DNA from: Planctomycetales bacterium
Lineage (GTDB): Bacteria > Planctomycetota > Planctomycetia > Pirellulales > JAGQOS01
Direction: 5' to 3'
Assembly (NCBI GenBank): GCA_020427265.1
Contig: JAGQOS010000001.1
Span: 1-44,891, forward strand
DNA: 44,891 bases
Below the pieces are notes generated by a model. The model made no database searches. It worked only from the letters and a program-made list of their open reading frames with translations, and was not told the origin of the DNA. Within the stretch, counting starts at the first letter, position 1. Each line of letters begins with the position of its first letter. A program made the translations under genes and the position numbers. Below are positions 1,624 through 19,293 of the stretch, piece by piece.

Positions 1624-2336
1624 TCCCTCTCGAAGCGAGACAACTCGGTGTAGCGTATAACCAGCGGCTCGTGCTGCGCAGCGTCGATTTGCAAATTGGT
1701 CCTGGTGAAGCCGTAGCGTTAATCGGCACGAACGGCGTGGGCAAGACAACCCTGCTTCACTGTCTCGCCGGCTTGCAACCATGCACAGCGGGCGAAGTGC
1801 GCTGGTTCGGCGAATCGTCGCTCGGGCAAGCCAACGCGAACCGCAGCGTCGGCCTCATCGCCCATCAACGATTCCTCTATCCCGAGCTGACACCGAGAGA
1901 AAACCTTCTCTTCGCGGCTCGCATGTACGGCCTAGCCTCGCCGCAGAAAAAGGTCGCGACGTCGCTGCGATACGCAGGGCTCGACGAATGGCAGCATCAA
2001 CCCACGGCGACATTGTCGCATGGTTTGCGGCAACGATTGGCTGTTTCGCGTGGCCTGCTGCATGCTCCGAGGATCGCGCTGTTCGACGAACCGTTTTCGG
2101 GGTTGGACGAGAATTCAAGGCAGTGGATGTCGCAGATCCTACACGAGTTGAGATCGCGAGAGACGGCCGTCTGCTTTACCACTCACGACCAAAACCGTGC
2201 CGATTCGCTGGCCGATCGGGTTTTGGAAATTGTCGCAGGCCGGCTGAGCGAGCGCGAGTCCGGCCAGTCGGGCCCAAGTTCGATGCATGCGTTTCGCCCC
2301 GGTCTCCATCCACACAACGAGAGGGCCGCCGCATGA
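1620..2336 (+). CDS. ccmA: Haem exporter ATP-binding protein CcmA (ABC ATPase)
   Basis: Walker A 'GTNGVGKTTLLHCLAG', ABC signature 'LSHGLRQRLAVSRGL' and Walker B 'ALFDEPFSGLD'. It is translationally coupled to both neighbours through ATGA overlaps at 1620 and 2333. Confidence 0.9.
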   Translation: MIPLEARQLGVAYNQRLVLRSVDLQIGPGEAVALIGTNGVGKTTLLHCLAGLQPCTAGEVRWFGESSLGQANANRSVGLIAHQRFLYPELTPRENLLFAARMYGLASPQKKVATSLRYAGLDEWQHQPTATLSHGLRQRLAVSRGLLHAPRIALFDEPFSGLDENSRQWMSQILHELRSRETAVCFTTHDQNRADSLADRVLEIVAGRLSERESGQSGPSSMHAFRPGLHPHNERAAA

Positions 2337-3022
2337 ACGCCGTTTATTTTCATCTCGGCCAATGGTGGTTCTTGGTACGCAAGGATCTGCAGCGCGAATA
2401 TCGCTCACGCGCGGCCTGGCCTTCGATGGCGTTGCTTGGCTTGCTCATGTTGATGGCCATCGAAATGCAACTCGACCTGCCGGCAGCCTTGTCTCGGCAA
2501 GTTGCCGGTGGCATGCTGTGGCTGGCGATCTTTTTTGGCGGCGCCGTGCCGATCGAACGCTCGTTCAGTTCAGAACAGGCCGACGGATGCTGGGACGCGC
2601 TGCGAATGTATCCCGTAGAGGGCGCGACGCTATATCTGGCCAAATTCGCCTTCAACTTTATCTCGCTGGCTATTCTCAGTTGCGTACTGTTGCCGATGTA
2701 CGTTGTGCTTACCGATGCTCCATTGCTCAAGCAATGGCCGGCGACTTCACTGTTGGCCATGCTCACTTGCGCCTCGCTGGCTGCCGCCGGCACGCTGGTT
2801 GGAGCGATCGCCAACTCGCTACGTTCGCGGGGCAACCTGGTCGTGCTGCTGCTGCTGCCGTTGGCCTTGCCTGTGTTGCTGGGCGCGTCCGACGCCACGG
2901 CATCGCTGCTACGAGGCGACACGGGCGATATGTTTGGTCGCTGGCTTCAGTTGTTGGCCGCGTTTTCGCTAATCAACCTGACTGCCGGAGTCTTGCTGTT
3001 CGACTTCGTTCTCGAACGCTAA
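2333..3022 (+). CDS. ccmB: Haem exporter membrane protein CcmB
   Basis: The internal ATG at 2333 overlaps the ccmA stop (ATGA). From there the product 'MNAVYFHLGQWWFLVRKDLQREYRSR...' is a ~229-aa polytopic protein with the CcmB-like stretch 'ERSFSSEQADGCWDAL'. The listed ORF start at 1781 would lie inside ccmA. Confidence 0.85.
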   Translation: MNAVYFHLGQWWFLVRKDLQREYRSRAAWPSMALLGLLMLMAIEMQLDLPAALSRQVAGGMLWLAIFFGGAVPIERSFSSEQADGCWDALRMYPVEGATLYLAKFAFNFISLAILSCVLLPMYVVLTDAPLLKQWPATSLLAMLTCASLAAAGTLVGAIANSLRSRGNLVVLLLLPLALPVLLGASDATASLLRGDTGDMFGRWLQLLAAFSLINLTAGVLLFDFVLER

Positions 3023-3049
3023 TTTGACGCCGAATTGAGGATCTCACGG

Positions 3050-3745
3050 ATGGAACTGCAGAAACTGAAATGCGGCCGACTCGAACCGCTCGGAGGCATA
3101 CTGTTTGCCGCTCTTTTGGCAGGTGTTGGCTTCTTGATCTTGCGCGTCGCTCCTGCTGAAAAGACCATGGGCGAAGTACAACGCATTGTGTACGTTCACG
3201 TCGCCGTTGCGACCTTTGGAATGTTCGGCATGCTACTGGCTGCCGCCGCAGGGCTCGCGCTGCTCGTTCGGCGCGACCAAGGCTGGGATCACTGGGGACG
3301 TGCCGCTGCGGAAGTCGGCTGGCTTTGCTCGACGCTGACCTTGATCACCGGATCACTTTGGGCTCACGAGGCCTGGAACACTTGGTGGACCTGGGAGCCT
3401 CGGCTCACGTCGTCGCTGATTCTGTGGACAATCTATGCCGGCTATTTTCTGCTGCGATCAAGTATCGACAACGATCGCCAACAGGCGCGCGTTTGCGCCA
3501 TCTTGGCGATCGTCGGTGCGTTGGACATTCCCATCATCACGATGGCGACACGCTGGTTCCGCGGCATGCACCCTGTATCACCAGAAATGGATCCTACGAT
3601 GCGCGGCGTTCTGCTGGCGAGCATGGTGTCGCTTACTTGCTTCTTTGCCTACCTTCTCGTGCGTCGCAGTGTGCAATTGCAAATGGGCCACCGTATTCGT
3701 GCGCTGCGGCAACGGCTGCTGTTTGAACAAGGCGTTCGCATGTAA
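3050..3745 (+). CDS. ccmC: Haem exporter / haem-handling protein CcmC
   Basis: WWD motif 'WAHEAWNTWWTWEPRLTSSL' in a polytopic membrane protein. The ATG at 3050 is preceded by AGGA at 3038-3041. The listed start at 3035 is a TTG five codons upstream. Confidence 0.88.
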   Translation: MELQKLKCGRLEPLGGILFAALLAGVGFLILRVAPAEKTMGEVQRIVYVHVAVATFGMFGMLLAAAAGLALLVRRDQGWDHWGRAAAEVGWLCSTLTLITGSLWAHEAWNTWWTWEPRLTSSLILWTIYAGYFLLRSSIDNDRQQARVCAILAIVGALDIPIITMATRWFRGMHPVSPEMDPTMRGVLLASMVSLTCFFAYLLVRRSVQLQMGHRIRALRQRLLFEQGVRM

Positions 3746-5641: not shown

Positions 5642-6172
5642 ATGAAGATTCGACACCTGGGGCCCAAGTCGCGGTCGGGACTGCGCGTCATCCTCGGTAT
5701 TAGTTGCCTGGCGATTCTCGTATCGTCAGCCGTCTCCCAGTCTCTAGGCGCCGAGCCGCTGGCCTCGCCACCCGAAGGACAAACCTACATTGGTTCGAAA
5801 AAGTGTGCGGCATGTCACTTCGATCAATACCTGAAATGGCGTCAGACGAAGCACGCCAAAGGTTTCGAAATCTTGCCGGCTAAATACCAGGCGGATACAA
5901 GCTGCTTGGCGTGCCACTCCACTGGACATGGGCAGGATACCGGATTCAAAGACATCGGCACCACACCCGACTTGGCGGGAACCTCATGCGAGGCATGTCA
6001 TGGCCCGGGTAGCAAGCACGGCGAAATCGCCAAAGGTTTCGGCACGGCGAAACTCTCGGGCGAAGACGAAGCCTATGTGCGCAGCACGATTCACTTGATC
6101 ATCCAAGGGAATGCGTGCGTCAAATGCCATACGGCAAACGGCCACAAGGATCATCCGCCGTACGACAAATAG
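5642..6172 (+). CDS. Periplasmic tetrahaem c-type cytochrome (cytochrome c554-like family)
   Basis: RBS GGGAG lies 8 nt upstream. There is a signal peptide and four CXXCH sites (CAACH, CLACH, CEACH, CVKCH) in 176 aa. The stretch 'YIGSKKCAACHFDQYLKWRQTKHA' is typical of c554-type multihaem proteins. Confidence 0.88.
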   Translation: MKIRHLGPKSRSGLRVILGISCLAILVSSAVSQSLGAEPLASPPEGQTYIGSKKCAACHFDQYLKWRQTKHAKGFEILPAKYQADTSCLACHSTGHGQDTGFKDIGTTPDLAGTSCEACHGPGSKHGEIAKGFGTAKLSGEDEAYVRSTIHLIIQGNACVKCHTANGHKDHPPYDK

Positions 6173-6481: not shown

Positions 6482-8221
6482 ATGTCGGATCAAGACAAGA
6501 AGCCGGAATCAACCGAAGAAAATCCATCGCCCGCACCCAGCCGCAAGCGGCGCTGGGCGGTACGCCTGTTCATCGCGTTTGCGATCTTGTCGGTCCTCGG
6601 GGCAAGCGTCCTCGGCGTGGCGGAACATGAAACGAGCAAGGCCGATTTCTGCGCCTCGTGCCATATCATGGAGCCATATTACGCGTCCTGGTCCGCCGAC
6701 CTGCATGGCAGCAAACTCGATGTCGCTTGCGTCGAATGTCATTATGCGCCGGGCGAACGTACGACGATCAAAGCCAAGTTCCGCGGCTTGAGCCAGGTTA
6801 CCAGTTACTTTAGCGGCCGCTACGGATCTGGGAGACCCCGCGCTTATGTGAGCAACCTAAGCTGCCTGACAGCCAAGTGCCACGGCGACAAGAAGTTCAT
6901 GGACAAAGCCATTCAGGTGGGCACGGTCAAGTTCAGCCACGCCAAGCACTTGGCGCGCACGGAGGAAATGGAGCAGCCTCAGCAAGCGCGGCTCGAAGAA
7001 TTGCAAAAACAATTGCGCGATACGCTAGGTGAGGAACATTTCAACGAATTACAGATCCTGGGATCGATCGCCGGGTCGGCGAAGCCGCGCTACGATGCCA
7101 TGGTGGCTCAATGCGAACAATGGGAATCGACCGTGGATCGCGAAACACTCGTCGAGTACTCGCAGCTCCTGCATCGCGACGTACGCATTACACAGTTAAA
7201 TGATCTGCAGTGCACGAATTGCCACGCCTACAGCTCTCCGAACCAGGAAGCATTCAACGGCAAGACCGGGCATCACTTCCAAGTTGCAACGACGACCTGT
7301 TACACGTGTCACTTCAACAACGAAGACTACAATACGGGCACAAGCACGTGCCTCTCCTGCCATACTCCGCCGCAAGGCGAGATTCTTGTCCACGCGGAGA
7401 AGGAGCTAAAAGGCGGCGAAGACAACGATGATGCGGCCGCGGCGAAGCCGGTCATGATGAATCATACCGACATGCTGGCTCGCAAAGTGGCGTGCATTTC
7501 CTGCCATGCCGACGCAATCCAACACGATGCAACCGTAACACGCCGCGACTGCGAGCGCTGCCACGACCGTCCCGAGTTTTTCAAGGACTGGAAAGAGCCT
7601 TTCACGCTCGACCTCGTCAAGCACTATCACAGCGTGCACGTTGAACGGCAAAAGGCCAAGTGCCAGGATTGCCATGCCGAAATTCAGCACAAGCTTGTTC
7701 GCGAGGAAGGGAACTTCCTTACTTCCGCCCTTGCCGATTGCGCGCGCTGCCATCCGAACCATCATACCGAACAAGTCGGTTTGCTACTGGGCCACAGCGG
7801 CAGCGGCGCCGTGCAAGGCGAGCCCAACTTGATGTTCGGATCACGAACGAATTGCAGTGGCTGCCATACAGAACTGACCGACGATTTGCACGGCGGCATT
7901 GTCAAGGCGACCGAACAGTCGTGCATTGCGTGTCATGGCGACAAGCACGAAGACACGTTTATGAAATGGAAGCTCGGCCTGGAACTGGTCATGGAAGACG
8001 CCGACAGCGCCTATGCCAACGCCAAGAAGTTGCTCGACGAAAAAACTGAACTGCCGGCTGAAGTACGCGACGAAGCCGCCAAGCTGATACGCGATGCCGA
8101 GGCCGATCTGCGGATGGTAAAAGTCGGCAACGGACTGCACAACATCACGTTTGCGATGGAACTGCTCGACTCGGTAACCACGCGTTGCCGCCAAGCGGCG
8201 ACGCTACTCTCCAAGGAGTAG
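6482..8221 (+). CDS. Membrane-anchored NapC/NirT/NrfH-like multihaem cytochrome c (11 CXXCH plus 1 CX4CH); putative quinol dehydrogenase
   Basis: N-terminal TM helix 'WAVRLFIAFAILSVLGASVLGVA' followed by the NrfH-type first haem site 'CASCHIM' and 'VACVECHYAPGE'. Further sites are CTNCH, CYTCH, CLSCH, CISCH, CERCH, CQDCH, CARCH, CSGCH and CIACH, plus 'CLTAKCH' at 6863-6883. The C-terminal ~100 aa are helical and charged. Confidence 0.88.
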   Translation: MSDQDKKPESTEENPSPAPSRKRRWAVRLFIAFAILSVLGASVLGVAEHETSKADFCASCHIMEPYYASWSADLHGSKLDVACVECHYAPGERTTIKAKFRGLSQVTSYFSGRYGSGRPRAYVSNLSCLTAKCHGDKKFMDKAIQVGTVKFSHAKHLARTEEMEQPQQARLEELQKQLRDTLGEEHFNELQILGSIAGSAKPRYDAMVAQCEQWESTVDRETLVEYSQLLHRDVRITQLNDLQCTNCHAYSSPNQEAFNGKTGHHFQVATTTCYTCHFNNEDYNTGTSTCLSCHTPPQGEILVHAEKELKGGEDNDDAAAAKPVMMNHTDMLARKVACISCHADAIQHDATVTRRDCERCHDRPEFFKDWKEPFTLDLVKHYHSVHVERQKAKCQDCHAEIQHKLVREEGNFLTSALADCARCHPNHHTEQVGLLLGHSGSGAVQGEPNLMFGSRTNCSGCHTELTDDLHGGIVKATEQSCIACHGDKHEDTFMKWKLGLELVMEDADSAYANAKKLLDEKTELPAEVRDEAAKLIRDAEADLRMVKVGNGLHNITFAMELLDSVTTRCRQAATLLSKE

Positions 8222-8230
8222 CATCGCGAC

Positions 8231-10699
8231 TTAGAACGCGTAGCTGAGTCCGCCCAGGAACATGTGGGCCGTGCCGCTGTTGATGCTCGTCGACTTGTCT
8301 TCGTAGTCGAAGTAGACGTAGCGGAAGTAGGTATCCATGCTCCGCATCACCTGATAGTCGACACCGGCATGGAAGCGCGTGGTGTTCACACGCACGTCGG
8401 CGAGCCCGGGCAGGGCCGACCAATCGGCGCCGGCCGGCGAGGCGGGCACCGAAAAGGCGTTGACACCGCGATTCCACTCCACGCCACCGACCAGTTGCAG
8501 GCAAGGCGTCCAGGCGTAGTTGGCGCCCAGGCTTAGCAGGTAATTCTCACCGCCGTACGACCAGCGGGTCTGCTCGGTAACGGCAGGATTGTTGCGGAAC
8601 GAAATCTCGATATCCTGATCAATCCAGTTCGAGAAGTACGCATAGGCTCCGGTGAAAGAGAGCCGGTTCGTGGGTGCATACCACAATGTTCCCATCAACG
8701 GATAGCTTTCTTCGTCGAAGTTGATGCCCTCGGAGTCGTGCCAACTGTCCTGAATGCCAATCTGGACCGTCGCCATCAGGTTCGATGCGGGCGTCCAAGT
8801 ACCGCCGAGTTCGACCAGATGAACCTGTTCCGGCTGGTTCGAGTTGAACGTGCCCGTACCGTCGTGGATCGATCGGATCGGCATATCGACGAACCGGCCG
8901 CGGTAGCGGACAAATCCGTTGAACGTTTGCGAGAAACGGTATTTCGGCGAGAACTCGATCTGATGGGCCACGGTATCGGGCTGTACAAACGTGCCGTTAA
9001 GCGGTGCATCGTATTCGGCATAGTCGCGGTTGATCGACGAGTACTCGTAGCCGGAAACCAGCGAGAAGCGGTCGCGCGGACTTCCGCACGGGCTCCATTG
9101 ACTCTTCACACCCGCGCGAACTCGGTTGTAGTCGACCTGCCGCACAACGGCCCCCGGTTCGCTCTGAGCGGGATTGCCGGTGACTGTGCCCCAGGGCGCC
9201 GTGGTGAGATAGTCGGTGGGCAAATCGTAGTTTTCGTCGTCCATTTTGACGAAACCGATCAGCTTCATGCGTTCGAAGCTGGTGTTGATCAGTCGCACAT
9301 CGTAGCCGGCGAACTCCCGGCGTGTATTACGAAATTCGTTCTTTGTGTCGCCAAGGTACATGTTGGCGTAGAGTTGATTGCAGTCGTTCAACTGGGCGCT
9401 GACCTTCAAGCGATCGACCTGCGTGAAGCTCTCGGGCACGTAGGCATAGCGGTACAGGTCACCGTCGACGTCGTTAGCGGGCGAATAGCTGAAGTGCGAG
9501 TAGACGCGCGTCGCAGCGCCATCGGCTTGTTCAAAGCTGCGCATGGTGCGCGAGTATTCGACCGTAAGGTTGTCGTAGCTAGCTTCGATCACCGGCTGAA
9601 CTTCCATCGTGAGCCAGTCGATCTTCTGGCGTTGGCTTTGCAAGTGGCAGGTGTTGTCGGTCGGTCCGCCGCCGCCCACGTTGTAGCAATGCCCCACGGC
9701 GTTCGCTTGACGTTCGCCGAACTTGCGCATGCCCCAGGTGTTCAGCCGCCATTTGATGTTGTCCGTCAGCTTGCCCTGAAAGCGCGCGTTTAGCTGTTCG
9801 ACGCGAATCGCATAATCTTGTCCGGTGTTCAGGTCTTCCGTCACCACGGCGTCGGCCGGCCCGGGGGGTACCGCGCCGTTGAGGTCGGCGCCGGCGAGCA
9901 AGTCGTGATCCAGACGACGGAGGAAGCGATTGAATTTGACTTTGGCGGTCAAGCGCGGTCCAAAGTAATAGGCACGCGCGTCGGTAGCTTCGTTGTCCAT
10001 GCCGGTCAGTGTGAAGTCGAGCGTGCGTACGCCGTCGCTGCGCATGCCGTCGACGTCCCAGAACGGCGACGACGTGAGTTCCTGAAATTCGCCGACCTTT
10101 TCCAGGTCGCCGTCGGTCGATACGCCCCAATACCCGAAGCGAACTATGGGGCCGTCGAGGTATTCAGTGGGGTCATAAATGGGACCGCAGTCGCAGGCGT
10201 TTACATCGCAATAGCAGCCGTCGCATTGCCATTCGCCACAATTGCCGGTTTGATGGCATCCGCCGCTGTTGCCGGCGCAGGGATGGAGGCAGTACTCGCT
10301 AGTCGTGCAGCAGGAGCAATCGCCGGGGCCATCGAAACGACAGATGTTCGGGGCGCAGCAACAGGAATTGTCGAGGCAGAAACGCACCGGGTTGCAGCAA
10401 TCGCCGCAACCGCTGTCGCACAAATCGCAACTCGCGCCACAGGCTTGATCGCAGGGAGCCGCGTTGTCGCAGGGCGCGGACAGAATTCCGGCCGTCTGCT
10501 GCGCTTCGTATTGCACAGCCCCAGCCTGTTCGCCTGGCGCGCCACCCGATTCGAAAGCCACGGCGGCGTGGTCCGCGGATTCAGCAGCCGGTTTGTCGCG
10601 GAAACCGATCCAGCTTCCTGTCGCACCCGATGTCTGGGCATCCAGCGGGGCGGCGACGGTCGGCACGAGGGCAATGGCCAAGAAGTATATGCGTTTCAT
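8231..10699 (-). CDS. Large outer-membrane beta-barrel protein with Cys-rich N-terminal module (candidate MtrB/PioB-like porin)
   Basis: The start is taken at ATG 10699, which gives the signal peptide 'MKRIYFLAIALVPTVAAPLDAQ'; the listed start at 10780 is a TTG. There are 25 Cys in residues encoded at 10187-10471. The remaining ~640 aa have the alternating hydrophobic/aromatic pattern of beta-strands and end in the OMP-type terminus '...FLGGLSYAF'. Confidence 0.8.
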   Translation of the reverse strand: MKRIYFLAIALVPTVAAPLDAQTSGATGSWIGFRDKPAAESADHAAVAFESGGAPGEQAGAVQYEAQQTAGILSAPCDNAAPCDQACGASCDLCDSGCGDCCNPVRFCLDNSCCCAPNICRFDGPGDCSCCTTSEYCLHPCAGNSGGCHQTGNCGEWQCDGCYCDVNACDCGPIYDPTEYLDGPIVRFGYWGVSTDGDLEKVGEFQELTSSPFWDVDGMRSDGVRTLDFTLTGMDNEATDARAYYFGPRLTAKVKFNRFLRRLDHDLLAGADLNGAVPPGPADAVVTEDLNTGQDYAIRVEQLNARFQGKLTDNIKWRLNTWGMRKFGERQANAVGHCYNVGGGGPTDNTCHLQSQRQKIDWLTMEVQPVIEASYDNLTVEYSRTMRSFEQADGAATRVYSHFSYSPANDVDGDLYRYAYVPESFTQVDRLKVSAQLNDCNQLYANMYLGDTKNEFRNTRREFAGYDVRLINTSFERMKLIGFVKMDDENYDLPTDYLTTAPWGTVTGNPAQSEPGAVVRQVDYNRVRAGVKSQWSPCGSPRDRFSLVSGYEYSSINRDYAEYDAPLNGTFVQPDTVAHQIEFSPKYRFSQTFNGFVRYRGRFVDMPIRSIHDGTGTFNSNQPEQVHLVELGGTWTPASNLMATVQIGIQDSWHDSEGINFDEESYPLMGTLWYAPTNRLSFTGAYAYFSNWIDQDIEISFRNNPAVTEQTRWSYGGENYLLSLGANYAWTPCLQLVGGVEWNRGVNAFSVPASPAGADWSALPGLADVRVNTTRFHAGVDYQVMRSMDTYFRYVYFDYEDKSTSINSGTAHMFLGGLSYAF

Positions 10700-10797
10700 G
10701 GTCCTAGATTCCGATTTACTTTCGCGGGTCTCGGCGCAGCGGGGATTGCGCCAAGGGTAAATCTCTGTCGTGGGTTTCAAACAAACATCGCAGGTAT

Positions 10798-10817
10798 CCG
10801 GGCGCTCTCGCGCCCGG
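10798..10817 (-). other. GC-rich intercistronic stem-loop between the 14-haem cytochrome gene and the barrel gene
   Basis: CCGGGCGC-tctc-GCGCCCGG forms a perfect 8-bp stem that begins 11 nt after the cytochrome stop. No U-tract follows immediately on the minus strand, so it is not a clean intrinsic terminator. Confidence 0.4.
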
Positions 10818-10828
10818 ACTCGCCTTGG

Positions 10829-12316
10829 TTACCGAGCAAACGATCTCGGCAAGTGCGGCGAGGGCAGGTCACTGCCGTGTATCTGGGCATGGCATTGTGT
10901 GCAGTCGCTGTAGAACGCCGCCTGCATACTCGGCGTTGTTCCAACATCGCCCACGCCGGCGCCTGTGTGCGGACCAAAGGTTGGCCCCACGCGATGCCCG
11001 GTGTGACATCGCAAACACAGGAAGGTCGCAGGTTGGTGCAGCAAATTATTGGCTACTGTGCCGTGCGGGTTATGACATATTCCGCAGTCTTCTGTCACGG
11101 GAGGATGGGAGTACACAAAGGGTCCCTGCTTTTCAGCGTGGCACTTGTAACAAAGTTGATTCGTAGTCGCCTCTTTCAAGTTGCCGTGCGCCTGTCCGTG
11201 GCCATCGTGACAATCGGAGCAGACCAACTTTCCTTCCTTGATCGGATGATGCGAAGGCATAGACGTTTCGGCGTAGATCTTGGGATGGCAACCGAAGCAC
11301 ACGTTCGGCTCGTCGACCGACATCGGCATCCGCGGCGCCCGTCGTACGTTCGTGTGGCTAATGTTTACGACATCGGCCACGCCGGTTTTCGGATGGGGGT
11401 TGTGACAGTCGGTACACGCAACGCCGTGCAGGCTGTGCGACGAGGAGTGCCAGGCCATCGTAGGCGCGTCTTTATGGCATTCCAAACACAATTGCGTACG
11501 CGACTCATGACGAATCTTGCCGTGGGGATCATGGCAAGTGGCGCAGGTGAACGAGTTCTGGCCGAGCATTTGATGCGGATGCGCGACGTGCTCGTACTGC
11601 TCCATGTCGCCGTGGCAGCGATAGCAGATTTGCGGCGAGATCGCGCCCATGTGGTGCGAATTGGCTCGCAGGGTCGCCATGTCTGGAGCGGGGGTCTCCA
11701 TTTGCAGGCTCACGAGCTGATGCGGCGGCAGGCGACGAATTTCGGCGCTCTCCAAGTCCGTCGTAGCAGGTGTTCCTGGTGGAACGTTGTAATGGCCCGT
11801 ATGGCAATCGGTACAAGCCACGCCGTTGTGGGCATGCACCGAATTGCGCCAGCGCCCGCCGGGAGCACACTGGTCCTCTTGATGGCACTTCAGGCAGAGT
11901 TCCGACTTTTGTGCCGGCGGCAGCGTCTTGAAGCTAAGGATCGAACCAGGCTCTTTGCCGCGCGTTTGGAGGTGGCGGCTACCCGGTCCATGGCACTGCT
12001 CGCACGATTGGCCACGGTGAATGTTGTGCTGAAACGTCTTCACATAGGTCTCGTGGCAGACCATGCACAACGTGTCGTCGTTGACATATTCGGCATTTTC
12101 AATCTGCGGCACAGGCACATGGAGCGCCGCCAATTGCACCTCTTGGAACTGCCCCTGAGGCTTTGGCCAATACGCCGACTTCGTGTCGACTTCGCCACGT
12201 TCGGCCTTGGTGGAAGACGATTTGCACGAAGCAAATGGCAGCACGCAAACCGCCGCAAAAAGCCAAACCAGACCTTGCCGGATACGAAATCCCGGAACCC
12301 GAATGGTAGTCCGCAC
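10829..12316 (-). CDS. 14-haem c-type cytochrome, probable lipoprotein (MtrA/DmsE-like modules)
   Basis: GTG start at 12316 with GGAGG 7 nt upstream. Signal peptide with a lipobox-like 'LPFASC'. There are 14 CXXCH sites (CMVCH, CEQCH, CLKCH, CTDCH, CYRCH, CATCH, CLECH, CTDCH, CFGCH, CSDCH, CYKCH, CGICH, CLRCH, CTQCH). The C-terminal stretch 'GPFVYSHPPVTEDCGICHNPHGT...LCLRCH' resembles periplasmic deca-/multihaem electron carriers. Confidence 0.9.
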   Translation of the reverse strand: MRTTIRVPGFRIRQGLVWLFAAVCVLPFASCKSSSTKAERGEVDTKSAYWPKPQGQFQEVQLAALHVPVPQIENAEYVNDDTLCMVCHETYVKTFQHNIHRGQSCEQCHGPGSRHLQTRGKEPGSILSFKTLPPAQKSELCLKCHQEDQCAPGGRWRNSVHAHNGVACTDCHTGHYNVPPGTPATTDLESAEIRRLPPHQLVSLQMETPAPDMATLRANSHHMGAISPQICYRCHGDMEQYEHVAHPHQMLGQNSFTCATCHDPHGKIRHESRTQLCLECHKDAPTMAWHSSSHSLHGVACTDCHNPHPKTGVADVVNISHTNVRRAPRMPMSVDEPNVCFGCHPKIYAETSMPSHHPIKEGKLVCSDCHDGHGQAHGNLKEATTNQLCYKCHAEKQGPFVYSHPPVTEDCGICHNPHGTVANNLLHQPATFLCLRCHTGHRVGPTFGPHTGAGVGDVGTTPSMQAAFYSDCTQCHAQIHGSDLPSPHLPRSFAR

Positions 12317-12858
12317 AACTAGACCTCCGTGTCAAACCGCTCAAGGAACAAGCGGCGTGTAATTCACCGTATCGACACATCAACGGCACAAGTCCCCTCC
12401 TGGGTCTTGGCCTCTGCATCGCTCGACCATGCCATTTGGCACGTCCGCGCCACGAGAGATGGTTCACTCTGCCAAGCGTCCACGCTAGCTAGCTCGGGCT
12501 GGCAAGAGAAACCATGTTTTTGTGTCCATCATCGATTCTCGACCTTTCTCGGCCGCGTTTTGAATGAAAATCGCCGGAGCTGCAATCATTTGCCAAGACT
12601 GCATGCAGATCGTCGTGCTGCACACTCCCGGCGCGCGGTACCGCACAAAAAATGGGTAGCTTCCGCTGCGTTGCACACCGGAGCCGGTGGACCGACTTAT
12701 GCGTACGGCGAACGAGCAAGTTAGAGGCAGACTCAGCAAGGTCGGCGCACCTCGCCTAGATTACCTCGCTCTGAAAAGAGACGTCGTGGCGCAACTGCGC
12801 CAGGGTGGACGGCTCGCAAACGCCAGCAACAGGAGGCCAGCTTAGAGTGCCCTTTGAC

Positions 12859-14697
12859 CTATGCCCGCATCGACGCCATCTGAGCTTCAATGGCTGTATT
12901 TGGCCACGATGGCAGTTGTGCAACATGGCTACGAACCAACGCGATGATGGCAAACGTCCATTGAAGAACCAACCCGACCACAACCATTCCCGTGCCGCCG
13001 GCGCCAAATCCGTACGAGTGCGCGCCGGCGGCGAGTACGAAGTTCACGCCGTACCAGGTCATGACCACAAGCGAGAAGCAAACGATCGAGGCCGCGGCCA
13101 AGCCTTTCTCGCCAACCATGCCAGCACTACGTGCATGCAAAAGGGCGAGATAACCGAGCAACGTAATGAGCGACCAAACCTCCTTCGGATCCCAGGCCCA
13201 GAACCGCCCCCAGGCGGCATCGGCCCAGACCGCCCCAAAGCCGAGCCCCAAGACAAGCAGCAAGACACCCAGTCGAGTTGTGAGCAGTGTTGCCTGGCAT
13301 AGCGCGCGCAACTTTGTGTATTCGGACCTGTTTCGCCAATGCGAATACAAGGTGAGGTTCGCCAGCGTTGCCCCCAATGCAAAGGCTGCGAAGCTTAGCG
13401 AAACCGCCAAGACATGCGCTACCAGGAGAGAATTGCTGCGCAACACCGGGTCGAGCGGATTCATCCGCGGATCGAAGACGGCTGGCGATCCGTCGGCGGC
13501 GGCCAGCAAGATCGCTGTGGTCATCGAGGCAGCAACCAGTATTGCCTTGTTGCGATATCTCCACTGTAGCGCCAATGCCAACAAAGCGATTCCACCCGCT
13601 ACCAGGAGAACGGTCTCGAACATGTTTGCCGCGGGAATTCGATTGGCGATCATGCCTCGCATCGCGAGTCCCGCGAAAACAGCCATCAGGCCGATGGCGT
13701 ACGCGATTAGAGCACTAGCAAAGAACGAACCGCGTCGGCGCCGATGATGAACCGAGAACAAACAACAGGCGCCGAAAAAGCTGATCCAGGCCAAACGAAA
13801 GGGTCGCCAATGATTGTAGGCGACTTCGAGCTGCATGGCCGATTCTTTCGGCGCACCGGAATACTTTTTTCCGATCTGCCCGAACGCCGCAGCCAAGTCG
13901 GACGAGGCTTGATGGAAGTCGGACGTGTGGCCAGCTAGAAACGCTTGGCGGGCCTGTTGCAAGTGTTTCTGAATTTTTCGCAGCTCACCGGAAGGGTCGG
14001 TATCATCGTCGAACTTCTGCAACAGGAGTTGTCCGCAAGTCAACCATCGTTGAGGCTCGACTTCATCGGAAGGCAACCATTTGGCAAGCCGTCCCATTCT
14101 TGCTCGCTGATAAGTCCAGTAGCGATCAGCCAGTTCGATTGCTTCCACTTCCACGCGAGTCAATTCTTCGCCTTTCGACTCGGCATCGATCAACCGTTTT
14201 GCCCAGGCATCGAAACTCAGGGCCTTGTCGGTGCGCGTGTCGTACACTTGAATCTTGTTTAGGCGTTCTGCAGAAACCAACAATTCCTTCGCCGGCAGTG
14301 TAAGTCGTTCTCTTAGCTGCGCATCTTCGATGGGCAGTAACGGCATTTTGTCCCATTTGTCAGCCTGGTGAAATTGAAAATAGATCGGACACCAGTCCTT
14401 GAGCTCCAGCATGCGGTCGCGTTGCGAATGGTCCCAACCCTGCCACTCGAAGAGCATGGTCAAATAGGCCGCGGTCGCGTCGAGGCGCACGGACGACTGC
14501 GGATCGCGCAAGCCATGGGAGTTCGAGGTTCGCCACAGTGTCTCTTGTGCGAACGTGTCGAGCGGTTTGAAACGTCCGTCGGACAAAACGCAAATCGGCC
14601 GCCAGGCTTGCACGTCGACTCGCCTGTCCGCCGCCTTGGCGCTGGTCGCACCGATGATCAGACCCGTGTATATCGCTGCCGAAATCCAACGTGACAC
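12859..14697 (-). CDS. ccsA: System II cytochrome c biogenesis protein CcsA/ResC with long N-terminal periplasmic extension
   Basis: GTG start at 14697 with GGAAGGAG 6 nt upstream. WWD motif 'WGRFWAWDPKEVWSL' sits in the C-terminal polytopic half. The N-terminal ~300 aa are soluble and contain 'DGRFKPLDTFAQETL'. The gene lies 27 nt downstream of resB. Confidence 0.9.
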   Translation of the reverse strand: MSRWISAAIYTGLIIGATSAKAADRRVDVQAWRPICVLSDGRFKPLDTFAQETLWRTSNSHGLRDPQSSVRLDATAAYLTMLFEWQGWDHSQRDRMLELKDWCPIYFQFHQADKWDKMPLLPIEDAQLRERLTLPAKELLVSAERLNKIQVYDTRTDKALSFDAWAKRLIDAESKGEELTRVEVEAIELADRYWTYQRARMGRLAKWLPSDEVEPQRWLTCGQLLLQKFDDDTDPSGELRKIQKHLQQARQAFLAGHTSDFHQASSDLAAAFGQIGKKYSGAPKESAMQLEVAYNHWRPFRLAWISFFGACCLFSVHHRRRRGSFFASALIAYAIGLMAVFAGLAMRGMIANRIPAANMFETVLLVAGGIALLALALQWRYRNKAILVAASMTTAILLAAADGSPAVFDPRMNPLDPVLRSNSLLVAHVLAVSLSFAAFALGATLANLTLYSHWRNRSEYTKLRALCQATLLTTRLGVLLLVLGLGFGAVWADAAWGRFWAWDPKEVWSLITLLGYLALLHARSAGMVGEKGLAAASIVCFSLVVMTWYGVNFVLAAGAHSYGFGAGGTGMVVVGLVLQWTFAIIALVRSHVAQLPSWPNTAIEAQMASMRA

Positions 14698-14724
14698 AAG
14701 ATGCTCCTTCCTTCGCGTCTACGA

Positions 14725-16605
14725 TCAGGCCGCTTCTCGCGATTTGCTCCAAGTTTCGTCCGGGTGTTTCCATTCTTCCGTCGCCGTCGAAATTCCTGCT
14801 GCTTCGATTCTCGCACGAACGCGTGCGTTGGCATCCTTGCCACCAGCAATCGAGCGACGGACGAACATGACGGCAATGCCACAGAAAATCATGACACAGC
14901 CCGCCTGTTTCAGCGGCCGGCCGGGATCGAATGTCACCGTAAATCGCGACGCTTGCGCGTTGTGCCTGCTTTCGCCGACTCCCGCCTGGCAGATGGTGAA
15001 ATGTTCATGTCGAAGCGGCCGGTTCGTGCCTATCTCCGCGTCGTCAAGCGGCTTTCCATCGCGACCGACAAGCTGCAGCCGACTTGCATACTCCGCATCA
15101 CCGGCGCCGTCTAGGCCCTGGCGGCGGTCGAAATCGGTAAGTTTCAAGTTGAACCCCAGCGGTTCCGTGCCATTTCCGTAACTTAAAGAGAGCGATCCAT
15201 CGGATGTTTCAATCGTGCCGTGGCTGCGCAATGGCACATTTCGCTGCAACCACAGTTCGTGCGTGGTTCCCGCCACTCGAAGTTCGACCAGAACGGCAGG
15301 CTCGGAGTTTTTCACGCGTTTGCCAAAGGCCGGCTGAAATGACACCTTCTCTTTGGCAAATGGGAAAAACTCTTCGATTTCAACTTGGAAATTGTTCGAC
15401 ACTTCGATGCGTCCGCCGGCCTGCACCTGGCCATGAAACGTGCGTTTCCCGTTTTGACATGTGCGAGCGAGCAATTCGCCATTCAAAGCGCGTAGCAATT
15501 CGACCGAAGTGCCCGCATCCAAGGCGGGATGTTCGTAGCGAAATTTAACCGGGCAGTCGCGTGGGTAAACGCCATCGAGATTCAGCAGCGGATCTTTGGC
15601 GAAGGCGATTTGTCGAAAGGGCGTAACCTCGCCCGGCATGTGCACCTGGAGTTCGACCATCGGATTGCCCGGTTGCTCACCTTTGGTGACGAAACTGCCT
15701 GCCTGACTTGGCCGGGCATTGGGAAGGTATTGGACAATCTCGATGGTCACGCCCGAGTCGTCGAGTGCAATTCGCTTTTCGAGAAACTCGTGGACGGAAA
15801 CCTGCTTGACCATATCTTGATAGTAGATCGTAAGACTTCCCTGTTCGGCGAGCGATTTCTCTTCGACATCTCGGAAGTTCTCCAACATTGCGTCGCTCGT
15901 GGCTTGCTCCAACTGAATGCGTAGCGGCCCGACCATAAGCGCGTTTCCGTAGCGACCCGCGCTGAGCCAATGGCTGGCGACCTTTTTGCCATCGGGCCCT
16001 AGGACTTTGAATGTGAGATAGGGACCGCCGGCGCGGGCGGAATCGGGGGCCCAATCGTGCCGCAGCGAGGCATGACGCAAATAACGCACGATTCGCGCTC
16101 CGACTCCATCGACTTCGCCAACCTCGAGTTCGTGGCCGGCAGTCCAATCAACCGGACCACCGTCGAAGGCAAACTTGAATGGCCGTTCGTCGGGCTTGCC
16201 AACCCACGACGCGGTAATCTGGCTGACGGCAGGCACAACGAATTCGCCGGCCTCCTGGTCTTCGGCCAGTTCCAGCACTCCCTGCTTGCCCTGCAGGAAC
16301 GAAATCAGCATGCCGAGCAGCAGCACCAAGAGCCCGGCATGCGTGAACAGCAATCCGATCGGTGGTCGTTGAAGCGAAAAACGTCGGACCGCTCCACAAG
16401 CGATGTTGACGGCAAGCACCGCCCATAGCCCGCAGAACCAGGGCTGCTCGTATACAAACCATCGGACGTAAGCGCTGCCGTGAATCGCTTCGAGAAACGA
16501 CGTGACGGCGAGCACGGTTGCTATCAATACTAGCAAAGCTACGGCGAGCTGCAGCGACCCCAAGAACGACAATACACGGAAAAATGCGTGGCGGGATTTC
16601 GACAC
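14725..16605 (-). CDS. ccsB: System II cytochrome c biogenesis protein ResB/CcsB
   Basis: ResB-like N-terminus 'FFRVLSFLGSLQLAVALLVLIATVLAVTSF...WFCGLWAVLAVNIACGAVRRF', a large periplasmic domain and a C-terminal TM helix. I place the start at GTG 16605, with AAGGG 7 nt upstream; TTG 16611 is an alternative. The upstream part of the listed ORF (to 16917) is not protein-like and overlaps a transposase relic on the other strand. Confidence 0.8.
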   Translation of the reverse strand: MSKSRHAFFRVLSFLGSLQLAVALLVLIATVLAVTSFLEAIHGSAYVRWFVYEQPWFCGLWAVLAVNIACGAVRRFSLQRPPIGLLFTHAGLLVLLLGMLISFLQGKQGVLELAEDQEAGEFVVPAVSQITASWVGKPDERPFKFAFDGGPVDWTAGHELEVGEVDGVGARIVRYLRHASLRHDWAPDSARAGGPYLTFKVLGPDGKKVASHWLSAGRYGNALMVGPLRIQLEQATSDAMLENFRDVEEKSLAEQGSLTIYYQDMVKQVSVHEFLEKRIALDDSGVTIEIVQYLPNARPSQAGSFVTKGEQPGNPMVELQVHMPGEVTPFRQIAFAKDPLLNLDGVYPRDCPVKFRYEHPALDAGTSVELLRALNGELLARTCQNGKRTFHGQVQAGGRIEVSNNFQVEIEEFFPFAKEKVSFQPAFGKRVKNSEPAVLVELRVAGTTHELWLQRNVPLRSHGTIETSDGSLSLSYGNGTEPLGFNLKLTDFDRRQGLDGAGDAEYASRLQLVGRDGKPLDDAEIGTNRPLRHEHFTICQAGVGESRHNAQASRFTVTFDPGRPLKQAGCVMIFCGIAVMFVRRSIAGGKDANARVRARIEAAGISTATEEWKHPDETWSKSREAA

Positions 16606-16726
16606 TATCAAGCCCTTTGATTGAATCCACCGCGAACAAAGCGACCATGCTCTGAAAAAACGCGGAATATACGTCGGCCCGAATACCGGTTCCCGATTGC
16701 ATGCGTCTGCGACCTGGCAGAGCCCA

Positions 16727-16890
16727 CGGGCGGGGCGAATCGTCTTCGATGTCCCGCCGTGGGTCAAGAGCAGCCAATTCGCCGCCTGGAAAGCATCAAC
16801 AACAAGATCAAAGCCGTCGAACGAATGGTCTACGGATACCGGGACGAAGACGACGACTTCCAGAAAATCCGTCAGGCCTTTCCCAGAAAT
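16727..16890 (+). pseudogene. C-terminal relic of an ISL3-family (DDE_Tnp_ISL3) transposase, frameshifted and truncated
   Basis: One frame reads '...PIRRLESINNKIKAVERMVYGYRDEDDDFQKIRQAFP'. This matches the ISL3 C-terminal signature (E-x-x-N-N-K-I-K-x3-R-x2-Y-G-[FY]-R-D...F). Upstream, '...GRIVFDVPPWVKSSQ' continues in a different frame. Only ~55 of the ~400 expected residues are present, and I saw no inverted repeats. Confidence 0.6.
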
Positions 16891-16901
16891 ACCGGACGAA
16901 C

Positions 16902-16938
16902 AAAAAAAGCGGGTCACCCGCCGAAGCAGGTGACCCGC
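16902..16938 (-). terminator. Rho-independent terminator downstream of the transglutaminase-like gene
   Basis: On the minus strand, GCGGGTCACC-(10-nt loop)-GGTGACCCGC forms a 10-bp perfect stem followed by TTTTTTT. It lies 43 nt after the stop at 16981. Confidence 0.85.
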
Positions 16939-16980: not shown

Positions 16981-18987
16981 TCAGTTCGTCCGTTCCATGC
17001 CGATCCAGTAGTCGATCTCTTCGAAGAAGACCCAGAACATTCCGTCGTCGTTCGAGATCTTGCGGGTCGTTGTCGTGCCATCTTCGAGTGTAATGCGAAT
17101 CGTATCACCCTCGAGCGTGAACGTTCCCGACTCGCGTGTTTCTCGGACCGGGCTCGACGGACCGGAAACTTTCATGTAACCGGCATACTGGCCGTTGGCC
17201 GTTAGTACGGCGACCAACTCCAGTTGCGTCCCTTCGATTTCACCGCGGTAGAGCCAAGATCCGATGAACGGCGAGTTGATCGAATTGGGCGTCGAGGTTG
17301 TCGTGGTCGAAGCCGTTTGCACGGGCACGTTGCGATTGTTGTTGACCAACTGCGTGCTTTCGTTGCGGCGGGGCTCGAACGAATAACCGAGATCCTTCAT
17401 GAAGCTCACGGAAACAGCAGGCAAGTCGAGGCTATGCACGCCCTGGTTCCGCAATGCCCGGATGTCGACGATAATCGACGTGCCATTCTGAGCTTCGCGA
17501 AGTTCCTCCGTGCCCTTCTTAACTGCTTCGAGAAACGATGCGTGGCCGATCATCGTTGCCTCGACACCGATCAGCTTGCCGCTGGGCAATTGCACGGCCG
17601 GAAAGCAGTGGCCAGGAACAACCACCAACGAAGGACGCAGTCCCACGGCTTCGCAGGTGCTGGCGAACAGCACACCGAGGTCGACGCATGTTCCGGCACG
17701 ATTCTGGAGCACGTCGCGTCCCGACTTGATGTGTTGGCCGTTTTTGCCGTCACGAAGCAAACCGGGTGGTGTTTGGTAAGCGATTTGGCTGTCACCCATG
17801 AAGCTAAACAGAGCGTCCAGGAACTTGGCGGCTTCGTCGTCGCTCGAAGAAGCGGCCGCACCGCCGGAAAGCCGGCTCACGCCACCAGCAAGTTGCTGAA
17901 TCACCGGATCGTTGGCGTTAACCATCGAACCGAGCACAAGTTGAATATTGTCGAACCGATCAGCGAAGCTGACCGCCTTGTCGGTGGCCAGGCTCGAAAA
18001 GATCGCTTCGTTACGAGAAAGGATCGTCATCCGGCGAACGTCGCTCTCTTGCACCAGGCGGCCGTCGGCCTGACGGTATTCAATCTCCACTTCCAGGCTT
18101 GCTGGACGGGTGCCAGTGAGCTTGGCGAGTTTTTCGAGATCGTAGATCGGGAAAAACGGATCGACCACGGTTTGCCCGGGGAGCACAACTTCGCTGCGAG
18201 CCCAACGGCTCCAACTGCTGTGTTCGGCAATCCGGAAGCGAACGCGGTAGTCGGTGATTTCTGAGTCACCAGTATTGCGGAAGATGCTGCGAGCGGTCCA
18301 CATTTGCGAGAACTTTTCATTGCCGTAGATCTTGGCCAGGCAGCTCATTACGTCTTTCCGCGTATCGACAGCGAAGTCGGAACCTACGCCGTTGCCCTCG
18401 TTTGTTTGGGCATCCAGATCGTAGGTCAGTTCGGTCATGCGGCTGTCGATGGCGGCTTCGTGAGCGCCTTCGGGAAGCTGCAATTTGATGATCAGCGTTC
18501 CCAGGCCCAACGCCGTATTGGCGGTCGAGCTGAGAATCGCCTGACGATCATCAATCGTGATCAGATCGAGCGACTGATCGTCGATGGCGACCTTCCACTC
18601 GCCTTCATGCTCGATGCGAGCCAGGCCTCGCTGTAAATATTCGATTCGCACGGTGCTATCGCCATCGTCAAAGCGACCGTCGATGTTTTCCAATTGCGCC
18701 CAATGCTTACCGGCGCCAAGTTGCCGGAGTAGTACGGCCATGTTGGGCGAGCTGGTCTTTAGTTCGGTATAGAGATTCGTCGTCAGGCGAATGTCGAGCG
18801 TGATGTTCGCATCGCCCACTTCATTGAGCGTAATGGTGCGCGTCATTTTGACCACGGGACCCGATTGGGCCAGGGCCGTGCTGGCCGTCGTGGCCACGAT
18901 CATGACCAACAGCAGAATAAGACAGAACTGAATTCCCTTCACATCCGTGAGCCGACCCATCATCCGAAAGCGTGCTTGTTGAACCAT
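16981..18987 (-). CDS. Exported transglutaminase-like (papain-fold Cys-His-Asp/Glu) protein
   Basis: ATG at 18987 with GGGGGA 7 nt upstream; the listed start at 19002 is a TTG. Signal-anchor 'IQFCLILLLVMIVATTASTALAQ'. Transglutaminase-core pattern 'RAGTCVDLGVLFASTCEAVGLRPSLVVVPGHCFPAV...IGVEAT' supplies the Cys, His and acidic residue. Confidence 0.75.
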   Translation of the reverse strand: MVQQARFRMMGRLTDVKGIQFCLILLLVMIVATTASTALAQSGPVVKMTRTITLNEVGDANITLDIRLTTNLYTELKTSSPNMAVLLRQLGAGKHWAQLENIDGRFDDGDSTVRIEYLQRGLARIEHEGEWKVAIDDQSLDLITIDDRQAILSSTANTALGLGTLIIKLQLPEGAHEAAIDSRMTELTYDLDAQTNEGNGVGSDFAVDTRKDVMSCLAKIYGNEKFSQMWTARSIFRNTGDSEITDYRVRFRIAEHSSWSRWARSEVVLPGQTVVDPFFPIYDLEKLAKLTGTRPASLEVEIEYRQADGRLVQESDVRRMTILSRNEAIFSSLATDKAVSFADRFDNIQLVLGSMVNANDPVIQQLAGGVSRLSGGAAASSSDDEAAKFLDALFSFMGDSQIAYQTPPGLLRDGKNGQHIKSGRDVLQNRAGTCVDLGVLFASTCEAVGLRPSLVVVPGHCFPAVQLPSGKLIGVEATMIGHASFLEAVKKGTEELREAQNGTSIIVDIRALRNQGVHSLDLPAVSVSFMKDLGYSFEPRRNESTQLVNNNRNVPVQTASTTTTSTPNSINSPFIGSWLYRGEIEGTQLELVAVLTANGQYAGYMKVSGPSSPVRETRESGTFTLEGDTIRITLEDGTTTTRKISNDDGMFWVFFEEIDYWIGMERTN

Positions 18988-19293
18988 TTCCAATTCCCCC
19001 AAGAATAAAGTGAAACATGTCTGGTTTGCCCGACTTCCGTGTCTGACTTGTGCTTCCTGCTGGTAGGCAATCCGTTTTCATGCAACTTGGCGGACAAAAA
19101 ACTCGGAAAATAATTCAAGAAGATTGATGGATCCGAATCTGGCGCAGTAGCTGCCGGTTTACCGGTCGATTTATGTAGAGTTGGCGCTCCAATTCGGCAA
19201 TTTCCGCGGTCGCATACGACGTTTGCGTACGTTCCATGCTTCGCAACGAGCGAGTCAAAGCAACATCTTGCGACCATTCCGCTTGCAGCGCGC

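Follow-up and report, generated by a model that had tools for sequence, protein, structure and literature searches.

A cysteine-rich N-terminal domain on an MtrB-type outer-membrane barrel in an electron-transfer locus of Planctomycetota

Mtr-type porin–cytochrome conduits are the model for the passage of electrons across the bacterial outer membrane, and one loose end in that model is the N-terminal CXXC of the barrel protein MtrB, in which Cys42 is essential and which lies in a segment absent from the crystal structure. The 44,891 nucleotides analyzed here (hereafter the window; positions 1 to 44,891, forward strand, of contig JAGQOS010000001.1 in the Planctomycetales bacterium assembly GCA_020427265.1) encode an MtrB-like outer-membrane barrel that carries an extremely cysteine-rich module at its N-terminus. 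What is this module, how far does it extend through the family of such barrels, and what might it do beside an electron conduit? Here we report that it is a real, non-random, unnamed and clade-conserved domain restricted to one barrel family, and we weigh the roles that could be assigned to it.

The module and the barrel that carries it

A sequence-only reading of this locus had counted 25 Cys in about 95 residues at 10187-10471; translation of the minus strand bears out the count, and that interval has the first and the last Cys codon as its exact limits. Measured against a background of 1.0% Cys (the window's non-cytochrome open reading frames together with the barrel body), the probability of at least 25 Cys in 95 residues is ~5e-28. 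The full Cys-rich string comprises 99 aa (aa 75-173 of the barrel protein, encoded at 10181-10477, minus strand), of which 25 are Cys, arranged in CC, CCC, CxC and CxxC motifs, and it is strongly acidic, with a net charge of -11 in the window copy and a family mean of -7. The DNA that encodes the module shows no tandem repeat. Internal duplication as its origin was considered and rejected, since self-alignment of the module halves was not above shuffles (p = 0.2).

The host gene (8231..10699, minus strand) encodes a protein of 822 aa (P0001); the stop-free frame extends over 849 codons (8231-10780), and the ATG at 10699 was chosen as the biologically sensible start. All of the following features lie on the same strand. 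A signal peptide, read from the sequence (aa 1-22, MKRIYFLAIALVPTVAAPLDAQ; 10634..10699), fits the family consensus MxRxxLxxA...A.E and holds no twin-arginine motif. It is followed by an acidic low-complexity linker of ~52 aa (aa 23-74; 10478..10633; net charge -4), modeled by AlphaFold2 (AF2) at a predicted local distance difference test (pLDDT) score of 25-36 and differing in length and sequence among homologues. The module then begins with a Cys/Asp-rich extension specific to the window copy (aa 75-104, APCDNAAPCDQACGASCDLCDSGCGDCCNP, 8 Cys; 10388..10477), which lies outside the family profile match, and continues with a conserved core (aa 105-167; 10199..10387) delimited by the family alignment, the profile search and per-column Cys occupancy. 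The barrel body (aa 185-822; 8234..10147) has 26 strands and ends in ...LSYAF. The module had been placed between the signal peptide and the barrel, which is correct in that it is in frame and N-terminal, but the acidic linker intervenes directly after the signal peptide. That the module is translated follows from the conservation of the signal peptide in the family and from the alignable Cys-rich module that ~80% of complete close homologues carry at the equivalent place; a true start codon downstream of the module, a concern raised with the first reading, does not fit these observations.

An open frame on the opposite strand (9818-12322, plus strand, 834 codons) overlaps the barrel gene and the cytochrome gene upstream of it, in a region of 58% GC. 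We take it to be a shadow frame, the minus-strand genes having hundreds of homologues.

The host is an MtrB-type porin by fold and synteny, as the sequence-only reading had recognized, though it scores under both the Pfam and the NCBIfam cut-offs. The full-length AF2 run, based on a 104-sequence alignment, gives a barrel of ~26 strands (strand list by DSSP), with residues from ~181 on mostly at pLDDT above 80-90. The best Foldseek match of this model in the PDB is MtrB 6r2q_B (E 2.5e-17; TM score 0.72, normalized to target length), and TonB-dependent receptors rank far below it. The gene directly upstream (10829..12316, minus strand) encodes a 495-aa MtrA/DmsE-type cytochrome with 14 CXXCH motifs and the lipobox LPFASC, which exceeds the cut-off of TIGR03508 (DmsE/MtrA; 252 bits against 192) and falls just under that of NF041028 (GSU2203/OmcK; 311 bits against 325). 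A scan of one genome per GTDB species recovered 78 loci of the barrel family, and in all 78 an MtrA-like gene lies directly upstream of the barrel gene.

Family models capture the barrel incompletely. Pfam MtrB_PioB (PF11854) reaches only 18 of the 23 bits that its cut-off requires (E 0.0012), over the C-terminal 144 residues only, and NCBIfam NF041027 (GSU2204 family CXXCH-containing (seleno)protein) reaches 175 bits against 350 (E 2e-51) in a match that begins at barrel residue 186 and leaves the Cys-rich module uncovered. The GSU2204/GSU2203 (OmcK) pair of Geobacter sulfurreducens, to which the best-scoring curated families for the window barrel and cytochrome belong, is likewise a two-gene barrel-plus-cytochrome module, but both scores are under their cut-offs (175/350 and 311/325). 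The window barrel also contains no CXXCH, unlike the motif that names the GSU2204 family, and has instead an invariant HC-x(10-31)-CH.

A family-specific, dispensable domain with plastic cysteine positions

Alignment of 78 module-bearing homologues yielded a module profile of 65 positions with the consensus FHPVCDCxCxIxxLDxWCxCDxxCCTTxxxxxHPCxCxxGNCYLTExGxWVSNDxxCDVxG. Two positions of this alignment are invariant (G146 and W157 in window numbering), and C141 (77/78), C164 (74/78) and the pair D165-V166 are nearly so. The profile is still conserved although the barrels of the module-bearing clade have diverged to ~45-55% identity. Within the window module only aa 105-167 match it; the extension at aa 75-104 is unique to the window copy and has no counterpart in the 78 aligned sequences. 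Among these copies and 97 complete homologues the window copy is the richest in Cys (25 against 9-18), and at least 8 Cys are found at the equivalent place in 77 of the 97 complete close homologues.

When 1.84 billion representative proteins were searched with the profile (E<=0.001), 14 matches were returned, with E-values down to 1e-24. Five were already known as family members; the nine new ones either continue into the start of this barrel (RFGWWG...) or end at a fragment break within or just after the module, and none of the nine presents the module in another architecture. A common planctomycetal Cys repeat, which the sequence-only reading had named as a match that would devalue its finding, is ruled out by this search, since the profile matches only this barrel family.

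The same reading had not recognized the module as a named domain, and the databases agree. Neither Pfam nor NCBIfam (E<=10) holds a family for the window module or for the other Cys-rich modules tested; the YTV, LDL-A (low-density lipoprotein receptor class A), TSP3 and metallothionein models do not match the module, and Pfam YTV matches neither the window module nor two Cys-rich and one Cys-depleted homologue modules at that threshold. A profile search of the PDB with the module gave nothing significant, the best match being 1ce3_A, a potato type II (PotII) proteinase inhibitor, at E = 0.35. The local likeness behind this non-significant match is C-x-x-G-x-C-Y-x-x-x-D-G-x-W-V-C, and the W-x-C-D-G pattern of the module recalls LDL-receptor class A modules. 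Disulfide domains with a fixed framework (knottin, PotII, LDL-A) differ from the module, which has no conserved even Cys count and no Pfam match.

The module, in any form, was seen in ~17 of the 78 species-level loci, where ~50 N-termini were readable. In a rough neighbor-joining tree of 152 barrel bodies it is confined to one crown clade, and the window protein stands at the base of a subclade with several forms. Type A modules in that subclade follow the pattern ...CRFD.P.DC.CCTT..YC.HPC....G.CRQ....G.W.CDG..CDV and contain 12-18 Cys, and a reduced clade with 4-6 Cys follows CxxCG-x13-17-CxxCG(C)DV, for example YCPHCG...ACPRCGRDV. Distant family members (<=42% identity) lack a module ahead of strand 1, and their Cys number 0-4. 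Within the window protein's subclade the module has been truly lost in P0036, P0047, P0055 and P0073, and the P0047 locus (L001) keeps the ResB-CcsA, 14-haem cytochrome, barrel, tetrahaem and NapC-like genes despite the loss. The module is therefore an accessory and not a core part of the conduit, because it has been lost in lineages with the same operon.

In P0110 and P0114, two proteins from the other main clade, the scaffold outside the Cys persists (FH.V.D...P.LG...TTN.W..HPC..HGN.Y...DG.W..ND..CDV) but only 2-3 Cys are left (two in P0114). The Cys common to both are the near-invariant ones of HPC (C141) and CDV (C164), and F, W, Y, G or S occupies the places of the missing ones. The only secondary structure that AF2 predicts in the module, in the full-length run and with the module alone, is a β-hairpin (aa 148-159, CHQTGNCGEWQC; 10223..10258, minus strand; strands aa 148-151 and 156-159), flanked by C137-x3-C141 on one side and by C159-D-G-C162-x-C164 on the other; the Cys that flank the hairpin are those retained in the reduced homologues. 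Taken as sequences, the variants show a putative fold that does not depend on most of its Cys, the predicted minimal feature being a β-hairpin clamped at both ends.

Possible roles: cross-linked cap, metal site, switch or spacer

What might such a domain do ahead of the first barrel strand? Our tentative reading, to which we give somewhat less than an even chance, is that covalent cross-links, mostly disulfides, make the module a compact cap or tether at the barrel's periplasmic rim. Its side of the membrane, its chemistry and its role as cap or tether are what we infer. N-terminal extensions of outer-membrane β-barrels are, as a standard rule, periplasmic, and the module would be so because it is the N-terminal extension of a 26-strand barrel with the C-terminus ...YAF. 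It lies ~20 residues ahead of β-strand 1, where an MtrB-type sheath would have its periplasmic N-terminus, and its conserved core is the predicted hairpin G-x-C-[YR]-x-T-E-D-G-x-W, which Cys would clamp at both ends (HPC...CDV); a second, N-terminal sub-cluster (CxCxC/WCxC/CC) precedes it. The losses of the module and the scaffolds of P0110 and P0114 with their 2-3 Cys point to a structural and not a catalytic role. Such a cap would stabilize or anchor the porin–cytochrome complex, and the extra, poorly conserved Cys could offer unpaired thiols for linking to other molecules, whether the cytochrome or the protein-rich envelope of planctomycetes. The module probably stands outside the electron path, with the 14-haem cytochrome within the barrel carrying electrons across the membrane.

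The Cys-rich envelope proteins of the Planctomycetes–Verrucomicrobia–Chlamydiae (PVC) lineages offer one comparison. YTV-domain proteins and the chlamydial OmcA and OmcB, outer-membrane proteins that are disulfide cross-linked, resemble the module in being exported, Cys-rich and from a related lineage; they differ in that the window module matches no Pfam family and is confined to this barrel family. Cys-rich YTV proteins have been recovered in planctomycetal cell-wall preparations (PMC8567305), which provides a precedent within the phylum.

A closer comparison is the MtrB of Shewanella, which is likewise a 26-strand sheath around an MtrA-type cytochrome and likewise has a Cys site after the signal peptide, shortly before β-strand 1. 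In S. baltica MtrB (6r2q_B) this site reads AWSCKGC at residues 39-45 (KMSAWSCKGCVVETG at residues 36-50, just before strand 1), and the comparable stretch of the window protein, W157-Q-C-D-G-C162 within GEWQCDGCYCDV, has the same W-x-C-x-G-C motif. MtrB has two Cys there; in the window protein the motif is embedded in a domain of 99 aa that has 25 Cys and a conserved scaffold of its own. In half of the planctomycetal family Ser stands in place of the leading Cys of this CxxC, and the distance from the motif to strand 1 is ~25 residues in the window protein against ~8 in MtrB. The planctomycetal module may be an elaboration of the MtrB N-terminal Cys site, a homology for which so short a motif is only a lead, and the proposed cap would then be an elaborated version of the W-x-C-x-G-C site. 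In those passages of PMC12175506 that report on Wee et al. 2014, the S. oneidensis MtrB mutation C42A abolishes Fe(III) reduction and C45A does not, a heterologous disulfide is proposed for the Cys42 site, and the Cys42/Cys45 CXXC is called a 'molecular signature of metal-reducing Gammaproteobacteria'. The S. baltica crystal structure lacks the N-terminal MtrB CxxC (PMC12175506).

The essential Cys42, as those passages of PMC12175506 report it, would also suit a thiol/disulfide switch set by the redox poise of the haem chain or the periplasm, in which a change in the shape of the cap gates the access of periplasmic shuttle cytochromes or signals the state of the conduit. The predicted place at the periplasmic entrance, near a 14-haem cytochrome and a tetrahaem shuttle gene, agrees with such a switch, as do CxxC-type motifs in homologues (including a DsbA-like CPHC) and odd Cys counts, which allow free or exchanging thiols. 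The module has, however, no thioredoxin-like fold or family match and is dispensable in many orthologues with the same operon, and besides C141/C164 no Cys pair is conserved enough for a dedicated switch; we regard this role as improbable.

Returning to the disulfide cap or tether, several observations weigh against it. The Cys spacing among orthologues, which the sequence-only reading had proposed to compare, is kept only in part: a recognizable scaffold persists, with two near-invariant Cys and ~11 columns in which Cys is the majority residue, but many other columns hold Cys sporadically, their positions turning over. The consensus holds 11 Cys, an odd count, and Cys parity has no even bias, either in whole mature proteins (48 even, 49 odd) or in modules (37 and 40), so that a fully paired intramolecular disulfide knot is unsupported. 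Two pairs of Cys columns tend to be lost together (70-83, p = 0.0014; 68-88, p = 0.016; uncorrected), which speaks weakly for specific Cys pairs, but these values lose significance after correction for 91 tests. AF2 places the module at pLDDT <50 in the full-length run and at a mean of 52 when modeled alone, with no confident fold and no Cys-Cys geometry. The window contains no Dsb-type gene. No extra Cys of the partner cytochrome co-occurs with the module; a module-linked partner Cys was accordingly rejected, the only conserved non-haem Cys being the lipobox Cys and that of CH-x4-C, which are present both with and without a module. Finally, the CxxCG arrangement of the reduced clade is a textbook metal-knuckle pattern, often without an equivalent of C164, and the reduced modules give sub-threshold zinc-ribbon and rubredoxin-like matches (E 0.005-0.15).

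The very low AF2 confidence, together with the quick turnover of Cys, the repeated loss of the module and the 30-aa extension found in the window copy alone, could instead describe a mostly unstructured, drifting spacer without a specific role, one whose Cys enrichment is a lineage-specific expansion that is tolerated. Against this stands the profile, whose 65 positions keep G and W invariant and C, C and D-V nearly so across the clade, with E-values that reach 1e-24, and 25 purposeless exported Cys would presumably be costly and prone to misfolding. We consider a spacer of this kind improbable.

The metal knuckles lead to a further explanation, which we judge possible but on the unlikely side: that the module binds metal through thiolates, with a zinc-ribbon- or rubredoxin-like four-Cys site clamping the hairpin and with Cys-rich copies such as the window's adding metallothionein-like thiolate clusters. 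The metal would be structural Zn, or the site would act as a buffer or trap for soft cations (Fe2+, Cu+, Cd2+, Hg2+, or selenite/arsenite) at the periplasmic mouth of a metal-respiring conduit. As in zinc ribbons and rubredoxins, two Cys knuckles surround a predicted β-hairpin, and the reduced homologues follow CxxCG-x13-17-CxxCG with knuckles CPHCG/CRHCG...CETCG/CPRCG and sub-threshold matches to Zn_Ribbon_1, DZR and RCKP-type rubredoxin-like models (E 0.005-0.015); the window protein retains both knuckles (C137-x3-C141 and C159-x2-C162), with a conserved His beside the first (HPC). Random Cys parity and variable Cys number also fit thiolate clusters better than a fixed disulfide map, and a Cys content of 25% in CxC, CC and CCC motifs, at the net charge of -11 (family mean -7), brings the window module into the 20-30% range of metallothioneins, with their CxC, CC and CxxC.

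Other features of the family argue against metal. The window module itself matches no zinc-ribbon or rubredoxin model, its first knuckle is CxxxC, and it is exported, not cytoplasmic; no Pfam or NCBIfam metal-binding family matches it at any reported E-value. In most of the family the four knuckle Cys are not kept: Ser takes the first position of the second knuckle in 39 of 78 sequences, and the first knuckle has its first Cys in only 31 of 78. Unlike in metallothioneins, W157 is invariant and F/Y/W positions are conserved, whereas most Cys columns vary. Where a Cys has been lost, G, S, A, F, W or Y stands in its place and not H, D or E, and F, W or Y for Cys is the classic replacement of a buried disulfide. 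The scaffold of P0110 and P0114, with its 2-3 Cys, has too few for a Cys4 site, and a lone Cys pair, as in the P0114-type minimal form, suits a disulfide and not a metal site. A protein with a Sec-type signal that is a substrate of the β-barrel assembly machinery (BAM) would acquire its metal in the periplasm, and a cluster loaded in the cytoplasm is unlikely because a Sec-type protein would pass unfolded to the BAM machinery.

Taken together, these comparisons somewhat favor a disulfide or cross-link role, as far as sequence can speak to it. The redox gate, metal trap and cytochrome docking site suggested in the sequence-only reading are weakened by the dispensability of the module and its plastic Cys pattern, and a periplasmic metal-binding and/or redox-active thiolate center in the conduit, sensing or trapping ions or oxidants and tuning or gating flow, appears to us unlikely. 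Two other candidates were rejected: docking by charge between the acidic module and a basic cytochrome, as the cytochromes are roughly neutral, and haem attachment to the module, which has no CXXCH and in which no conserved residue follows the relevant Cys (Y, R or H).

The electron-transfer island and its meaning

The locus is a conserved Mtr-like extracellular-electron-transfer island of Planctomycetota, made up of a quinol-dehydrogenase-type cytochrome, a tetrahaem shuttle, the 14-haem lipoprotein and the barrel, with both cytochrome c maturation systems alongside. The System II maturation pair CcsA (12859-14697) and ResB (14725-16917), identified by Pfam and NCBIfam, occupies 12859..16917 on the minus strand and heads the same gene string as the 14-haem cytochrome and barrel genes. 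Convergent with the barrel gene, on the plus strand, are genes for a tetrahaem c554-like cytochrome (5642-6172) and a 579-aa NapC/NirT-type membrane cytochrome with 11 haems (6482-8221), both assigned by Pfam, NCBIfam and motif counts, and the System I maturation genes CcmF, CcmA, CcmB and CcmC lie at the start of the window (19-3745, plus strand). Genes for ResB/CcsA, NapC-like and tetrahaem cytochromes and Ccm proteins recur near the barrel in related loci. All 78 loci come from metagenome-assembled genomes (MAGs) of Planctomycetota, with no isolate genome among the record titles, and they span Pirellulales, Planctomycetaceae, Thermoguttaceae, Isosphaeraceae, Gemmataceae and Candidatus Anammoximicrobium. 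No description of such an island for Planctomycetota was found in the literature searched. The source habitats of the MAGs (loci L002-L079) include groundwater, soil, sediment, sand filters and similar settings.

Several features of the cytochromes merit separate mention. The MtrA-like partner has 14 haem motifs instead of 10, its signal is of the lipoprotein type (…VLPFASC), and an extra Cys is conserved four residues past haem motif 3 (CLKCHQEDQC); loci with the Cys-rich module and loci that lack it share these features. The NapC/NirT-like cytochrome contains, besides its 11 CXXCH motifs, the sequence CLTAKCH (CX4CH; aa 128-134, window 6863-6883, plus strand), a possible atypical twelfth haem site. 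System I (19-3745, plus strand) and System II (12859-16917, minus strand) flank the electron-transfer genes; the linkage of both systems recurs in many related loci, with ResB and CcsA fused in L001, and one system may serve as a lyase dedicated to an atypical haem site.

The barrel body has a cysteine motif of its own. At aa 337-352 (window 9644-9691, minus strand), A-H-C-F...N-x-C-H-V-L-S-Q-x-Q-x-I-D-W is invariant in 152 of 152 barrel bodies, the spacer between the Cys of H337-C338...C351-H352 measuring 10-31 residues in the family and 12 in the window. The AF2 model puts the two Cys face to face close to the tip of the long β7-β8 hairpin, a tip that strand counting places outside the cell. 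The HC-x(n)-CH motif may form a loop that is stapled by a disulfide and bears two His; alternatively, it may correspond to the CXXCH of the GSU2204 family, which has selenocysteine in some members.

Beyond ResB, the neighborhood changes in character. The adjoining gene (16981-19002, minus strand) encodes a 673-aa protein with a weak match to a transglutaminase-like core, and its residues 241-530 align with the model of the anti-phage protein ProA in its N-terminal portion (E 6.6e-21, well short of the cut-off). Further along are a 1297-aa Ser/Thr kinase with an NB-ARC/AAA region and TPR repeats (21529-25422, minus strand) and a 1107-aa caspase-domain (Peptidase_C14) protein with TPR repeats (29327-32650, plus strand), with a gene for a TonB-dependent receptor (26470-29058) between them.

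What is new here is an Mtr-type porin with a new N-terminal domain, set in an Mtr-like gene island that the literature searched does not describe for Planctomycetota. Its immediate significance is moderate, the module being dispensable and its chemistry putative. If the module were a metal-binding or redox-active thiolate center, it would explain the essential N-terminal Cys of Shewanella MtrB and would represent a chemistry unlike that of any characterized part of a porin–cytochrome complex. An uncultured clade of Planctomycetota appears to have expanded the position of the MtrB CXXC into a conserved Cys-rich domain, and its natural series from 0 to 25 Cys, including 4-Cys and 2-Cys minimal forms, offers a way of comparing a disulfide tether, a metal site and a redox switch at the same place in an electron conduit.

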